Origin: Holophagaceae bacterium
GTDB lineage: Bacteria > Acidobacteriota > Holophagae > Holophagales > Holophagaceae
Assembly (NCBI GenBank): GCA_009783055.1
Contig: WRHW01000075.1
Location: forward strand, 1-12,092
Direction: 5' to 3'
Length of the DNA: 12,092 nucleotides
Shown here: positions 54-3,580 of the stretch, piece after piece
Position numbering within the stretch: position 1 is the stretch's first letter
Layout: each line of letters opens with the position of its first letter
The notes under the pieces: model-generated
Told to the model about the DNA's origin: nothing
The model's input: the letters and a program-made list of their open reading frames with translations, nothing else
The model's database searches: none
Position numbers and translations under genes: made by a program

Positions 54-97
54 CGTCATACCAAGTTGCTCCCGGTTGGGTGCAACTTGGTATGACG
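54..97. repeat. Perfect 16-bp inverted repeat (CGTCATACCAAGTTGC / GCAACTTGGTATGACG). An inner CCC/GGG extension (positions 71-73 pairing with 78-80) leaves only a GGTT tetraloop. Likely a REP-like palindromic element or factor-dependent terminator.
   Basis: Read directly from the sequence. The arms at 54-69 and 82-97 are exact reverse complements, and the 12-nt loop is itself partly self-complementary. No U-tract follows on either strand, so this is not a canonical intrinsic terminator. It shares its core with the hairpin at 3545-3580. Confidence 0.5.
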
Positions 98-271
98 TAA
101 CATTGTATTATTTCAAAATTTACAGGTAATAATACTAGGTTGCGTTTAATTGGTATTCAGCGCGAAACGCCACAATGAACGTGACGTAGCAACCAAACAA
201 ACAGCGATTTGAAAGGACAAAATGGTTTTGAAATCACCTTGCATTTCAACTTTTTCTGCTCCAAACCCGCT

Positions 272-937
272 CTAGCAACCACTAGACAACTCTTCTCGGA
301 ACCTTTTGTAAAAACTTTGTAATAATTCAAACCGCCTAGTTGCCTCAGATTTGGCTGGCGCAGTATTCATACTAGTGACTATGCTATGAGCTATCTCAAG
401 CCAGTTTTCACCCCTTGATAATATTTCGGCGGTTGTTGCAGGCTGAAAAGCGGGGAGGATGCAGATGGAATGAATCAAGCTGGCGGTTCCGAGCTTGCTA
501 AGTTTGTCTATATCCCACAAACAAGCTGTTTCAATTGGATTAAGCGTTTCTGCGAGTTTGAGACCTACATGATGTAAAATTGCGTGTTGTACGGCGGGTA
601 TTTTTTCTGGAGGGAAATCTGTGCCATTAAGTATGCCTTCTACCGACTCTGCGGCCTCTTTTGCATGGTTGTCTTTCCCCTTCGTGCCAAGCCGTTTTTT
701 ACAATCATGTAGCCATGCAGAACAAATTAGGATGTCTTTATCGGCGTTTACCAGCGGAGCCAGCCACTTACCTAATTTAACTACTGCTAGTGTATGTTCG
801 TAGCGATAGTCGAAGGGTGGAAGTTTTTCCCCATCTATGATATGTCCCCACCCCCAAAACCGCAAGGAGTCATTTCTAGAGAAATCAAGTAGAGTCTTTT
901 TACAGGCGGATTGCCATTGAGGCGTTTTTGACTGCAA
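272..937 (-). CDS. HD-domain metal-dependent phosphohydrolase
   Basis: The 221-aa ORF contains an HD-superfamily signature (H...'AWLHDCKK' with downstream His/Asp: 'YEHTLAVVKLGKWLA...WLHD...HAKEAA...ILHHVGL...D'). The start is TTG at 935-937, preceded by a strong SD 'AAGGAG' with a 7-nt spacer. There is no in-frame ATG near the N-terminus. Confidence 0.7.
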   Translation of the reverse strand: MQSKTPQWQSACKKTLLDFSRNDSLRFWGWGHIIDGEKLPPFDYRYEHTLAVVKLGKWLAPLVNADKDILICSAWLHDCKKRLGTKGKDNHAKEAAESVEGILNGTDFPPEKIPAVQHAILHHVGLKLAETLNPIETACLWDIDKLSKLGTASLIHSICILPAFQPATTAEILSRGENWLEIAHSIVTSMNTAPAKSEATRRFELLQSFYKRFREELSSGC

Positions 938-1072
938 TGTATAACTCCTTCAAAATTGATTCTTGGTAATTGGTTTATGGTGATTTGCATCTTGCGATAT
1001 TGGAGTCACTGTAACAATCACCAGAGGTGTTAAGTTAGGTACTATTAATAAGTGAAAGTGCTAGGTGGGAAA

Positions 1073-1726
1073 CTACATGATGCCCACTAATTTATGAATT
1101 TGTAGGGAGAGTTTCCACCTTGGATGGGCTAGGCAGTAATCGACCGCGGCCAAAACCGAGTCTGGATTTTGTTTGTCATCAATTGGTTGCAGATAAAAAT
1201 GATCAAAGTCCATGCCCTCAAATTGTGATGGCTCTAAATCTTTTTGTGGATATACAAGTTTTAGTTCATTTCCGGTTGTAATACACAATTTTGTTATGGC
1301 CTTTGGGCTAACAGTAATCCAATCAATTCCCCTGGGCATGGGCAGGGTTCCATTGGTCTCTACTGCAACAACACACCCACTGGCGTGCAGGGTAGCAATC
1401 AATGAATCATCTACCTGTAGCAGAGGTTCACCACCAGTGAGCACTACGAAGGGGGGAGCTTCTTTTGGCCAGCAGGATAGAACTAAATTCGCTAAATTTT
1501 CAGCGTCATATTCTCCCCCTTGATTACCATCTACACCCAAAAAATCTGTATCGCAAAATTGACAGAGAGCGCGATTACGCTCGGTACTAATCCCAGACCA
1601 CAAATTGCAACCAGAAAACCTGATAAAAATTGTGGCTCTGCCAGAATGAAACCCTTCTCCTTGCAGGGAGTAAAAAATTTCTTTAATCCGATACAGAGCT
1701 ACCTCCTTTGGCTTTCCCCTTGCCAC
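1073..1726 (-). CDS. queE: 7-carboxy-7-deazaguanine synthase (radical SAM, queuosine/7-deazaguanine pathway)
   Basis: The N-terminal 'YRIKEIFYSLQGEGFHSGRATIFIRFSGCNLWSG...C...C' matches the QueE hallmark 'EIFxSxQGEG' plus the non-canonical radical-SAM cysteine cluster. The length (217 aa) is typical. The only in-frame start is GTG at 1724-1726, with no obvious SD, and it overlaps the upstream gene by 28 nt. Confidence 0.8.
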   Translation of the reverse strand: MARGKPKEVALYRIKEIFYSLQGEGFHSGRATIFIRFSGCNLWSGISTERNRALCQFCDTDFLGVDGNQGGEYDAENLANLVLSCWPKEAPPFVVLTGGEPLLQVDDSLIATLHASGCVVAVETNGTLPMPRGIDWITVSPKAITKLCITTGNELKLVYPQKDLEPSQFEGMDFDHFYLQPIDDKQNPDSVLAAVDYCLAHPRWKLSLQIHKLVGIM

Positions 1727-2646
1727 TGTGAGCGCAATTGTTCCATTGGAACAGCTATCGCGGGGGAAGTTTTCTGTTTATTTGCCAGTTCGATAGCCAG
1801 TTCGAGAGTCTTGTATCCATCTGCCCCGCTACCTGCCCAGCGTAGTATTTGAGCCTTAACAAAAAGATTTTGGGGGGTTTGTTTGATTTTAATTGATTCT
1901 TCAATTAGCTTCATTGCCTGTGGCAAATCCTTTTCAGAATCAAGTAGGTATTGTGCCGCCTCACATCGCGGGAGCCAGTCTGAAGGCTTGGCATTTGCCA
2001 TGATCTCCTTCATTCGAGCCTCAACCGCCTTGTCAAGATCGACTTCGACTAGAAAATATATGCGGAGTTTTTCCCAGTCCAAGTCAACATAAGCACTAGC
2101 ATCGCTAGCAGGATATATCTCAAAAGTTAGATATTCAGAAAAAGATGTTGCAACAGGGCGCACGTCGAAACGGAGTAAATCCTCTGTGGGATTGTATTCA
2201 AAGGTGCCAATTTGGTGGTGGCGCTTGTTCAAAATAATTGTCCATCTGTCCCTGCTCGGAATAGTAAAAAGTGCATATTTGCCCGCTGGAACAGGATTAC
2301 CTGCAACTTTTACTGCATGTGAAAAACTAATGGTTGTAGCTTCGTTTGCCCCAGTTCGCCAAACCTCGCCAAAGGGCACAAGCTCGCCCCAGATTGGTCG
2401 GTTGCGGATACCGGGTCGGTGATATTCGATTGTTACTGTGCATACACCAACTACCTGACTGACGCTTGCTTTTGGGCTTTTTTGTGGGAACATTGTATTA
2501 GTTCCCTGAGCCTCAAGAGTTGGCGAAAAGATGAAAAATAACAGGGTGAGAGTGCAGAAAAAATGTTTTTTCAAAGTATCTGAAAATATGTCTGACAGTT
2601 GCCAGCAGACTGAATGACTAGTGATTTGCATTTTGGCTACATTCAT
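1699..2646 (-). CDS. Secreted DUF2911-family protein with C-terminal TPR-like helical region
   Basis: The motif 'YHRPGIRNRPIWGELVPFGEVWRTGANEAT' matches the conserved DUF2911 core. A signal-peptide-like segment ('KKHFFCTLTLLFFIFSPTLEA|QG') precedes it. SD 'GAGAGG' lies upstream of the ATG at 2646. The exact start is uncertain because the n-region is long. Confidence 0.65.
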   Translation of the reverse strand: MNVAKMQITSHSVCWQLSDIFSDTLKKHFFCTLTLLFFIFSPTLEAQGTNTMFPQKSPKASVSQVVGVCTVTIEYHRPGIRNRPIWGELVPFGEVWRTGANEATTISFSHAVKVAGNPVPAGKYALFTIPSRDRWTIILNKRHHQIGTFEYNPTEDLLRFDVRPVATSFSEYLTFEIYPASDASAYVDLDWEKLRIYFLVEVDLDKAVEARMKEIMANAKPSDWLPRCEAAQYLLDSEKDLPQAMKLIEESIKIKQTPQNLFVKAQILRWAGSGADGYKTLELAIELANKQKTSPAIAVPMEQLRSQWQGESQRR

Positions 2647-2653
2647 TGTTGGG

Positions 2654-3274
2654 CTAACCTCTCACAAAAGGGTTTCCGGTGCGCTCAGAGCCAATGGTCG
2701 ACGTGGAACCATGTCCCGGAATTATAACTGTATTGGAATCCAAGACGTAGAGTTGTGTACGGATGCTATTTTCCAACAGTTCCCAGCTTCCTCCCCAAAG
2801 ATCGGTTCGACCTACTCCCTTACAAAAGATCGTATCTCCTGTTAAAGCAATAGGGCTTTTTAGAGAAGTAGCCAAAAAAGTTGACGATCCGGGGCTGTGT
2901 CCGGGAGTATGCAGAAATCTGATACCCAAAGGTAGTTTATCGGCGAGTGGAGTAATAGCTGGTTTTTTGATTGGGGGCATCCTAAATTTAGAAGTCTGAA
3001 AATCCAGGCTATCAAACATCTCATTGTCATCAGGATGAAGGTATACAGGGCACTCCCAGATACCTTGTAACTCTGTAGCGGCTCCCAGATGGTCAAAGTG
3101 GGCATGAGTCAACAAGATAGCCTCAATTGTGAGTGAATGAGCCTCTGCCTTTGAAGCGATCCGCTTTGCCTCATCCCCCGGATCAACTACTACACCAGCT
3201 TTTGACTCTGTATCCCACAGAATAATGCAGTTGCACTCAAGTTGGCCGACAACCAATATTTCATACTCAAACAT
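2654..3274 (-). CDS. MBL-fold metallo-hydrolase (glyoxalase-II-like)
   Basis: The metallo-beta-lactamase motif 'LTHAHFDHLG' and the later 'HTPGHSPGS' and 'GDTIF' motifs are present. I chose the internal Met start (ATG 3272-3274, 'MFEYEILVVG...') because it is preceded by SD 'GGAG' 6 nt upstream. The ORF-track start at 3319 has no SD and would add an atypical 15-aa extension. Confidence 0.75.
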   Translation of the reverse strand: MFEYEILVVGQLECNCIILWDTESKAGVVVDPGDEAKRIASKAEAHSLTIEAILLTHAHFDHLGAATELQGIWECPVYLHPDDNEMFDSLDFQTSKFRMPPIKKPAITPLADKLPLGIRFLHTPGHSPGSSTFLATSLKSPIALTGDTIFCKGVGRTDLWGGSWELLENSIRTQLYVLDSNTVIIPGHGSTSTIGSERTGNPFVRG

Positions 3275-3544
3275 ACCTACTCCACTGCATAGTTTACATG
3301 AGGGTAGGGGGAATACCAAGCTAGGAAAATGTTCGAGCTTTATTACCTAAATCTCCATCCCGATTGTAGCCCCACTCTATATTACGGATGCCTTCGGCAT
3401 AACTTAAAGGGCAGTGCAGAGTTAAACCAGCGGAGTTGTAGACAGGGTTGAAAGCGCAACGAGTCTGGAGGATTAGGAGTGAAGGGAAAAACGTAGCCAT
3501 ATCTCCATTTCCATGTACTGCTCTTTAAGTTAATCCACCATATC

Positions 3545-3580
3545 ATACCAAGGTGCGAATAAAGGATCGCACCTTGGTAT
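3545..3580. repeat. Perfect 14-bp inverted repeat (ATACCAAGGTGCGA / TCGCACCTTGGTAT) with an 8-nt loop. This is a second copy of the REP-like palindromic element, and possibly a terminator for the TM2 gene.
   Basis: Read directly from the sequence. It lies 34 nt downstream of the TM2-gene stop codon (3614). A weak T-run (CCTTTT) follows on the + strand only. Confidence 0.5.

Follow-up and report, generated by a model that had tools for sequence, protein, structure and literature searches.

Elements of the IS630/Tc1/mariner group share the hallmark of targeting a TA dinucleotide and duplicating it (PMC7325037; the TA rule also in PMC2229807). The ends of most bacterial MITEs begin with TA (PMC2229807), as do those of the family analyzed here. 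RUP of S. pneumoniae, a MITE of IS630-Spn1, is short, non-coding, mostly intergenic and able to form stable stem-loops, and its terminal inverted repeats match an IS630-family insertion sequence (IS) thought to act in trans (PMC2229807). The hairpins described below resemble RUP in all these respects and are of this already known kind, the IS630-type MITE; what sets them apart is a TNA target-site duplication and a distribution that crosses phyla.

Our window, a 12,092-nucleotide stretch of a Holophagaceae MAG, holds three copies: one bearing hairpin A (approximately 5–92), a copy 3 (133–199), and hairpin B (3546–3579). The original prediction had drawn attention to two related intergenic palindromes, A at 54–97 and B at 3545–3580, and their arms, folds and core enrichment confirm that both are real and akin. 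Hairpin A (unstranded) pairs 20-nt arms (54–73 and 78–97, 95% complementary) across a 4-nt loop, and B pairs perfect 14-nt arms across an 8-nt loop. Folded as RNA, A reaches −36 to −38 kcal/mol (z about −8.3); for B the values are −24 to −28 kcal/mol (z about −6), and no shuffled sequence was equally stable in either case. Every arm contains the shared core TACCAAG[T/G]TGC and carries ATACCAAG[T/G]TGC, and the T/G difference in the left arm is indeed mirrored by A/C in the right. The window has 10 matches to the 12-mer with up to two mismatches, where 3.4 would be expected (0 of 200 shuffles); with up to one mismatch, six matches lie in 14.7 kb of L001, a contig 98.4% identical to the window, against 0.29 expected.

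The key clue to the nature of these hairpins lies beside hairpin B. Its right arm had been written as GCACCTTGGTATGA, but the actual sequence (3567–3582) is GCACCTTGGTATCA; the right flank therefore reads GGTA followed by TCA, and TCA is found as a direct repeat at 3543–3545 and 3580–3582, outside the stem. We assign these two unstranded triplets as the left and right copies of a target-site duplication, on the basis of the direct repeat and of the TNA duplication seen throughout the family. They enclose an unstranded mini-MITE of 34 nt (3546–3579), composed of TACCAAGGTGCGA (3546–3558), the loop ATAAAGGA (3559–3566) and TCGCACCTTGGTA (3567–3579). The same element occupies the equivalent site in L001, and its arm type, AAGGTGCG, recurs in elements of Alphaproteobacteria (Novosphingobium, Rhodospirillales, Rhodospirillum).

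Hairpin A is the outer terminal stem-loop of a longer, minus-strand MITE copy (5–92, the inner end near 5 being approximate), which runs in minus-strand order from the terminal-repeat hairpin through a GC-rich hairpin (about 31–54) to the interior CAGAATGAACGTGATGTTGG. Its transposon-end arms, TACCAAGTTGC (59–69) and GCAACTTGGTA (82–92), match an autonomous IS perfectly: 11 of 11 positions agree with the outermost 11 nt of its terminal inverted repeats. The triplets next to them, TCA at 56–58 and TGA at 93–95, are inverted rather than direct, so that the stem extends into the flanks. In L214, another Holophagaceae locus, a complete 143-nt element occupies a non-orthologous site, and its right end is homologous to about 70 nt of the window (30–95); positions 6–32 form an inverted repeat with 171–197, in the interior of copy 3. 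The latter, a plus-strand, decayed MITE of about 67 nt that is not palindromic and had escaped the original prediction, lies 40 nt from the A-bearing copy. It is preceded by TAA (130–132) and consists of the end TACTAGGTTGC (133–143), a small hairpin (144–163), the segments GAAACGCC and AATGAACGTGACGTA, and a degenerate inner end, GCAACCAAACA (189–199). Modules that lie upstream of the MBL gene in L214 and L215 show homology to copy 3, as do the ends of the 143-nt element and of a 322-nt one; A, copy 3 and the modules from related Holophagaceae are mutually alignable. Both A (TCA/TGA) and copy 3 are decayed and have no matching TNA flanks.

Beyond the window, a palindrome scan of a genome collection returned at least 76 loci in many phyla, the matches listed being dominated by one Desulfarculus MAG with at least 45 loci in its single genome. 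Their consensus, ATACCAAGTTGC-[GA][AT]TCAAA-loop-TTTGA..GCAACTTGGTAT, shows similarity far beyond the queried pattern among the matches listed, and their loops measure 4 to 30 nt. Members are non-coding and 33 to about 330 nt long with termini TACCAAGTTGC...GCAACTTGGTA, and terminal inverted repeats of the form TACCAAG[T/G]TGC.../...GCA[A/C]CTTGGTA stand at both ends of A, of B and of all complete members. A single-end scan of metagenomes added at least 120 loci. Among those listed, TNA precedes 114 of 125 ends, against a background of 6.3%; identical 3-nt TNA flanks bound 42 of 57 elements, where 27% would be expected (p = 3e-13, with the partner chosen without bias), and 23 of the 26 complete elements of 146–326 nt that carry family ends. 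The middle base is identical on both sides, making TNA the duplicated unit; duplication of TA only is unlikely, since it would need an implausible TxA-TA-TxA target. These data support a dispersed, repeated palindromic family with hundreds of members across phyla, as originally proposed in part, and the near-identical ends of 11–19 nt in Acidobacteriota, Desulfobacterota, Alphaproteobacteria, Cyanobacteriota, Ignavibacteria and other groups suggest broad horizontal transfer. On cyanobacterial plasmids, a search with the Nostoc-type hairpin found two further MITEs with TGA duplications. The window organism has about five insertion loci in some 22 kb, and related Holophagaceae have more; in the Holophagaceae sequence seen, element density is roughly one per 5–7 kb. 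Rfam 15, at gathering and permissive thresholds, returned only unrelated tRNA and CRISPR repeats from the window and 13 related loci. No neighboring gene is conserved across the 76 palindrome loci listed, only common histidine kinases being clustered, and a full-text literature search for the end sequences yielded unrelated primers only. The Chunjie MITE of Geobacter is excluded as the same family by its 9-bp direct repeats.

The family ends also bound elements large enough to encode a transposase. At 10 loci examined they enclose 1116–1143 bp with two genes, orfA and orfB, between terminal inverted repeats of about 20–30 bp that start TACCAAGTTGCAATCA. The orfA product is an HTH protein of 167 aa (HTH_33/HTH_29; Pfam HTH_33 1.1e-14) and that of orfB a DDE_3 transposase of 168–186 aa (Pfam DDE_3 1.8e-25), which by itself scores 132.8 bits against the NCBIfam model transpos_IS630, “IS630 family transposase” (cutoff 100). 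The parent element thus encodes HTH plus DDE_3 with the motif PPYSPELNPEEQIWDE, and the two products are probably joined by frameshifting. This parent IS, which lies outside the window, thus has the N-terminal HTH and DDE_3 domain of the IS630 family, whereas its flanks are TNA rather than the TA insertion and duplication of that family: clean duplications flank the 1.1-kb elements at L170 (TCA/TCA), L220 (TTA/TTA) and L223 (TAA/TAA), and for L221 and L222 the mismatched flanks can be combined into a second copy with TCA/TCA. The transposase is about 40–52% identical to annotated IS630 transposases on plasmids, the nearest of which (Acidithiobacillus, Caballeronia and Gloeocapsopsis, 42–52%) were rejected as parents on account of their different ends. 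A Crinalium plasmid copy truncated by an IS6-family fragment was at first a candidate parent and was rejected. No transposase gene of the parent family occurs in the approximately 70 kb of Holophagaceae sequence examined, an all-against-all search of the genome loci compared found no multi-copy IS, and a literature search for IS630 elements with TNA or 3-bp duplications returned nothing relevant.

Comparison of closely related genomes places the elements at points of rearrangement. The stretch over which the window matches L001 (98.4%) begins exactly at 132, at the end of copy 3; homology between L214 and L215, which are 99.7% identical, breaks at the inner end of the module; and that between L215 and L217 breaks at the TCA before the mini-hairpin and again at the TAA after the module. 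As the synteny of genomes that are 98–99.7% identical breaks exactly at element ends, the elements probably both drive rearrangement and fragment metagenome assemblies. Among the related genomes compared, no orthologous locus offers a clean empty site, and insertion is therefore deduced from the duplications and breakpoints.

Taken together, the TNA duplications and shared ends, the family of the transposase, the copy number and spread, and the breakpoints at element ends make it very probable that an IS630-family insertion sequence gave rise to hairpins A and B as non-autonomous derivatives, or MITEs. Members of the family have terminal inverted repeats and, in B and most of the elements compared, a target-site duplication; they are small, non-coding and dispersed, and have ends in common with an autonomous element. 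Their identity as MITEs rests on the duplications and on ends that match those of a DDE (IS630-family) IS. The parent transposase would bind both ends, excise the element and insert it at a TNA trinucleotide, which would be duplicated on either side, and it presumably moves the small elements in trans. Internal deletion would have left elements between about 330 and about 34 nt long, with only the ends spared; once little but the two ends is left, these would stand back to back as a perfect hairpin. Hairpin B would be such an ends-only element of 34 nt with its TCA duplication intact, and A the stem-loop at the end of a decayed copy of somewhat greater length. Deletion may have produced the 34-nt forms before or after insertion. 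A and B keep 11–13 nt of the 20–30-nt inverted repeat, perhaps too little for transposase binding, and may be immobile relics.

Does the matched change between the arms nevertheless speak for selection on structure, as the original prediction held? It does not: the T and G versions are separate, widespread subfamilies. The arms of each hairpin are opposite, inverted ends of a single transposon, and common descent together with recognition by one transposase makes them agree; on the autonomous element the same ends are 1.1 kb apart. At the T/G position, the arms agree in 42 of 51 distinct palindromes. An own-versus-other comparison of the inner parts of the IS ends gave a weak difference (0.69 vs. 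0.59), which we set aside as evidence.

The functional half of the original idea, compatible with a MITE origin, survives best among the alternatives: the hairpins, once MITEs, may now be kept by selection as RNA structures, for instance 3′ stabilizers, RNase barriers or factor-dependent terminators serving the genes upstream. Both are very stable as RNA, and reviews hold that MITE transcripts downstream of genes take part in mRNA regulation (PMC2229807), which favors it. Hairpin B, kept at the equivalent site in the 98.4%-identical strain, lies 31 nt past the stop of a TM2-domain gene (3614), upstream of a co-directional MBL gene. The predicted location just downstream of minus-strand genes thus suits B, and A only loosely, 175 nt from the stop of an HD-domain gene (272) with copy 3 in between. 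Conservation between near-identical strains is, however, uninformative on selection, and transposon ends account for the arm-to-arm agreement. The absence of canonical U-tracts, correctly noted at the outset, also weighs against it: neither A nor B has the GC-rich stem-loop plus U-tract of an intrinsic (Rho-independent) terminator, no T run follows the stems, and a terminator scan flagged neither. Other members sit in divergent promoter regions or over gene ends (L001 12569–12890; L214 3919–4061, at the fmt 3′ end), as fits near-random intergenic insertion. On balance we regard selective maintenance as unlikely. As a by-product the hairpins may stabilize transcripts or act as terminators, and any effects on neighboring transcripts would presumably be incidental. 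A sigma-54 promoter (TGGCAC...TTGC upstream of two copies) was also entertained and dropped on inspection, its spacing being off by 5 nt.

Much less tenable is the mechanism first proposed, in which a RAYT, an IS200-like Y1 HUH transposase, disperses REP/BIME-like elements (REPINs). In its favor, the palindromes are short, extragenic, multi-copy and frequently situated past the ends of genes, and the dispersed repeats themselves are real. REPs, however, are species-specific, carry a conserved 5′ tetranucleotide such as GTAG, and have no target-site duplication and no link to a DDE transposase; single-strand HUH transposition leaves no target-site duplication either. The present elements are flanked by TNA duplications, a DDE_3/IS630-type gene lies between family ends, a GTAG-type 5′ motif is absent, the single arm is not palindromic, and a check for RAYT/IS200-like transposases found no RAYT in any locus examined. 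We therefore give this mechanism very little credence.

A DDE parent of another family is more improbable still. The IS1031 group of the IS5 family and PIF/Harbinger-Tourist elements duplicate a 3-bp TNA/TWA target, and a parent transposase of the IS5 (IS1031-type) or PIF/Harbinger-like kind would match the TNA duplication; the IS5 end, GGAAGGTGCGAA, resembles the arm of hairpin B, with a 9-nt likeness in AAGGTGCGA. All 10 of the 1.1-kb elements examined nonetheless encode HTH and DDE_3 rather than DDE_Tnp_1, and the loci examined show no IS5-like signature. Equally remote is the notion that these are host-protein binding or recombination sites (an operator palindrome, integron attC, or Xer/dif-like site) whose hairpin shape is secondary, for despite a symmetric conserved core and the synteny breaks at element ends, loops of 4 to 30 nt allow no fixed half-site spacing, inspection found no match to attC R″/R′ (RYYYAAC/GTTRRRY) or the dif consensus, the neighboring genes include no conserved integrase or regulator, and the duplications and transposase already explain the data.

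The IS630-type MITE reading bears on annotation, as such perfect hairpins would be transposon ends and not REP elements, terminators or selected structured RNAs, and the arm-to-arm “covariation” of transposon ends is a trap for structure-based RNA discovery. An IS630-type DDE_3 enzyme with a 3-nt TNA duplication would depart from the TA rule of its group and, if the stagger is confirmed experimentally, would offer a natural system for learning what sets target stagger in these enzymes. More tentatively, and with the odds rather against it, the elements could represent a previously undescribed cross-phylum IS630-family lineage whose transposase makes a 3-nt staggered cut at TNA in place of the 2-nt cut at TA that characterizes IS630/Tc1/mariner, and whose unusually small hairpin MITEs, down to 34 bp, mark Holophagaceae breakpoints and in some cases were perhaps co-opted as 3′ RNA structures.

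Set against known systems, the family looks like REP/BIME/REPIN sequences in its short, multi-copy, extragenic repeats that fold into hairpins and often follow genes, and lacks the defining REP features tested. With the IS1031 and PIF/Harbinger-Tourist elements it has only the TNA duplication in common, theirs being a DDE_Tnp_1/PIF transposase with other ends and its own a DDE_3. For most Correia/NEMIS, ERIC and other MITEs, we know of no identified parent IS with matching ends. Correia/NEMIS, ERIC and other bacterial MITEs share the terminal inverted repeats, TA termini, stem-loop transcripts, gene-adjacent insertion and possible mRNA effects (PMC2229807). They have unrelated sequences and are lineage-restricted. 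Like IS630/Tc1/mariner elements and Stowaway-type MITEs, the present family has an HTH plus DDE_3 parent that passes the NCBIfam IS630 model, but where that group duplicates TA, it duplicates TNA. RUP, finally, is about 107 bp long, confined to one species and inserted at TA, whereas the present elements range from 33 to about 330 nt, occur in many phyla and are flanked by TNA.

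The two palindromes of the window, hairpin A (54-97; 20-nt arms with one mismatch and a 4-nt loop) and hairpin B (3545-3580; perfect 14-nt arms and an 8-nt loop), are best explained as members of a family of MITEs, small non-coding transposon derivatives, that descends from an IS630-family element and is presumably moved by its transposase. RNA folding gives −36 to −38 kcal/mol for A and −24 to −28 kcal/mol for B, 6-8 standard deviations under shuffled sequence. The motif ATACCAAG[T/G]TGC is present in both arms of each hairpin and is over-represented in the window, with 10 matches versus 3.4 expected when up to 2 mismatches are allowed, among them a third, non-palindromic copy at 132-143. 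Both hairpins lie where the original prediction placed them, except that the right side of B had been misread as ...GGTATGA; since the sequence is ...CTTGGTATCA, the two TCA triplets, at 3543-3545 and 3580-3582, form a direct repeat that brackets a 34-nt element (3546-3579) and do not extend the stem.

The same kind of repeat recurs across the family. Among 26 complete elements, 23 carry the same triplet just outside both ends, a TNA (TCA, TGA, TAA or TTA), for which chance is about 1 in 64 per element, and two plasmid MITEs of about 85-91 nt, from Nostoc and Allocoleopsis, are flanked by TGA/TGA. A scan of metagenome contigs with the single end TACCAAGTTGCRWTCAAA returned at least 120 loci, and TNA precedes 114 of 125 ends among the matches listed versus a background of 6.3%. 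When each end was paired with its farthest inverted partner within 400 nt, ignoring the flanks, 57 elements had TNA on both sides, and 42 of them carry the same middle base on both sides versus 27% expected (p=3e-13). These identical middle bases cannot be explained by a duplication of TA alone, taken from the first two bases of TACC; what is duplicated is TNA, and the element itself runs TACC...GGTA.

The likely parent emerged from four metagenome matches whose partner end lies 1116-1143 bp away, each enclosing two overlapping reading frames. The first, orfA, matches HTH_33 and HTH_29; orfB, with the motif PPYSPELNPEEQIWDE, matches DDE_3 (1.8e-25) and the NCBIfam model 'IS630 family transposase' (132.8 bits, cutoff 100). 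The arms of A (59-69 and 82-92) are the outer 11 nt of the ends of this insertion sequence (IS), and those of B match the ends at 10 of 11 positions, their type being the AAGGTGCG subfamily that also occurs in Novosphingobium, Rhodospirillales and Rhodospirillum. At E≤1e-30, searching with the protein gave 3662 relatives, most of them on contigs of 1.1-1.5 kb, which is the expectation for a repeat; looking up three of these yielded seven more loci, in six of which both ends (TACCAAGTTGCAATCA...) are visible. Clean duplications flank the autonomous copies L170 (TCA/TCA), L220 (TTA/TTA) and L223 (TAA/TAA). L221 and L222 each have one flank in common with L220 and their remaining flanks are both TCA, a pattern that implies a further copy flanked by a TCA duplication, together with chimeric assembly across the repeat. 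More broadly, L220, L221 and L222 (and L223/L224) present the same 1135-bp IS in the flank combinations X-IS-Y, X-IS-Z and W-IS-Y, which fit two genomic copies, with TTA and TCA duplications, plus chimeric contigs, and which advise caution when reading IS flanks in metagenome assemblies. The nearest annotated plasmid IS630 transposases are 40-52% identical, and their ends differ. At a further locus (L219; 3758-3881 and 1947-3195), an autonomous copy adjoins type IV secretion genes (T2SSE/VirB11-like, TrbC) and a group II intron reverse transcriptase, a setting that resembles a conjugative element and might account for horizontal spread.

Copies also occur in relatives within the Holophagaceae; no transposase gene was seen in the Holophagaceae sequence examined. 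The MBL-fold protein encoded in the window shows 100% identity to one from a Holophagaceae (Acidobacteriota) MAG. A 30-kb ENA contig (L001), 98.4% identical to window 132-5008, carries B at the same site and four further motif sites (6 matches versus 0.29 expected), including a degenerate mini-hairpin 20 nt past the glutamate dehydrogenase stop and a 322-nt composite element between divergent genes. Three related contigs (L214, L215 and L217), whose MBL-fold protein is about 70% identical, hold further copies. The complete element of L214 (3919-4061; 143 nt, TCA/TCA flanks) has a left end of the type found at window 133-199 and, at the right end, a stem-loop of the hairpin-A type, TACCAAATTGC-CCCCGACTGGGT-GCAACTTGGTA, which follows the GC-rich hairpin that also occupies window 31-54. 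A is therefore the stem-loop at the terminus of a longer copy (about 5-92) that has decayed, the segment at 133-199 is a second decayed copy in opposite orientation 40 nt off, and B is a minimal copy keeping an intact duplication. A is flanked by TCA on one side and TGA on the other; since the outer bases of a TNA duplication already pair with each other, a single middle-base substitution would lengthen the A stem. The region upstream of the MBL gene holds, in both L214 and L215, modules of about 68 nt resembling the 133-199 copy, and L215 has a mini-hairpin nearby that resembles that of L001. The last 17 nt (3919-3935) of the gene called as methionyl-tRNA formyltransferase in L214 (2991-3935) fall within the 143-nt MITE, so the insertion provides its last codons and stop, and copies can thus overlap the ends of coding regions.

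Two other repeats of the window deserve mention. Next to B, in the intergenic stretch ahead of the MBL gene, lies a second, unrelated inverted-repeat element (3400-3532); its 19-nt arms, TAACTTAAAGGGCAGTGCA and TGTACTGCTCTTTAAGTTA, are 89% complementary and 95 nt apart, and with TA at both outer edges it may be another MITE. The same copy occurs in L001 and in a further locus (L080), and no second copy was found in all sequence examined. Within an 813-aa lipoprotein gene (4249-6690), three 20-nt repeats (4724-5229) spaced by exactly 243 nt probably reflect tandem 81-aa protein domains.

What, then, do the hairpins represent? It is possible that B serves as the 3′ stem-loop of the TM2-domain gene transcript, a role described for other MITEs (PMC2229807); B has no U-tract, and a terminator scan does not call it terminator-like. 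The T-versus-G change in one arm, matched by A versus C in the other, had been taken as compensatory and hence as a sign of selection on the structure (RNA or cruciform). It gives no evidence for such selection on RNA: the arms, which agree in 42 of 51 distinct palindromes, are the two ends of one transposon, and the T, G and C variants mark subfamilies. The forecast of a dispersed family was borne out, and its proposed REP/BIME-RAYT mechanism is rejected because duplications exist and the partner is a DDE enzyme. Under the MITE reading, the hairpin shape would follow from two inverted ends left back to back.

Element ends also coincide with breaks in synteny. Identity between the window and L001 starts exactly at 132, the outer end of the 133-199 copy (131/132 versus L001 4877), to the left of which lie hairpin A in the window and a 184-aa gene in L001. 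L214 and L215 share 99.7% identity on the right side of the upstream-MBL module's inner end and show no relationship on its left (9886/9887 versus 3539/3540), and the alignment of L215 with L217 is lost at the TCA before the mini-hairpin and resumes at the TAA after the module (3428-3607 versus 9769-9954). Three breaks at such positions make element ends repeated synteny breakpoints, which suggests that rearrangements are brought about by the MITEs or that copies recombine with one another. Among the related loci compared, none offered a clean empty site.

Beyond the Holophagaceae, a scan of one genome per species with ATACCRAGNTGC-N(4-30)-GCANCTYGGTAT returned at least 76 loci under taxon sampling that, as in the metagenome scan, is uneven; the matches listed come from Desulfarculus, Candidatus Adiutrix, Alphaproteobacteria, Cyanobacteriota, Ignavibacteria, Holophagales, Bacillota and others, and have no conserved neighbouring gene. 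The loci are alike well beyond the query pattern (...TTGC-[GA][AT]TCAAA-loop-TTTGA..GCAA...), some short matches are probably chance terminators, and Rfam has no model for the palindromic elements of the window and related loci. Aligned flanks identify the Desulfarculus matches as the left ends of elements of 161 or 203 nt that consist of several hairpins and finish in the same 19-mer, inverted; elements of 146-160 nt from Adiutrix, Desulfovibrionaceae, Magnetospirillum and others share these ends and this layout. One groundwater Desulfarculus sp. MAG (L003-L078; contigs JACRDC01...) holds at least 45 copies of this 161- or 203-nt version; what sets its variants apart is an additional hairpin and deletions between short repeats (e.g., L044 537-616). 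An IMG/VR contig classed as viral (L085; 7519-7617 and 14589-14686) has several copies, among them two adjacent palindromes within a single pair of TCA flanks that may be a nested or tandem insertion. On Crinalium epipsammum plasmid pCRI9333.05 (L083, 3002-3511), a family end, TGA|TACCAAGTTGCGTTCATAA..., is cut short after about 47 nt by a fragment of an IS6-family element, which has the end GAGTTGTGTTGCAAAAAG and two fragments of DDE_Tnp_IS240 genes; here one mobile element has inserted into another. Many matches and IS copies (L091-L225) come from related ENA assemblies (ERZ272573xx) and JGI samples with Candidatus Adiutrix-like sequence; from these accession patterns, one may guess that the family is especially abundant in one habitat type, possibly gut communities.

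Our literature search found no paper with the end sequences and no link between IS630 and TNA or 3-bp duplications; the ISfinder catalogue lay outside the search, so a prior entry is possible. The IS630/Tc1/mariner group targets and duplicates TA (PMC7325037), and RUP of S. pneumoniae, with IS630-Spn1, comes closest among described cases (PMC2229807). Elements of this kind are well known, and the departure of this family is its 3-nt TNA duplication. Outside this family, duplications of that type are typically made by IS5 elements of the IS1031 type and by PIF/Harbinger.
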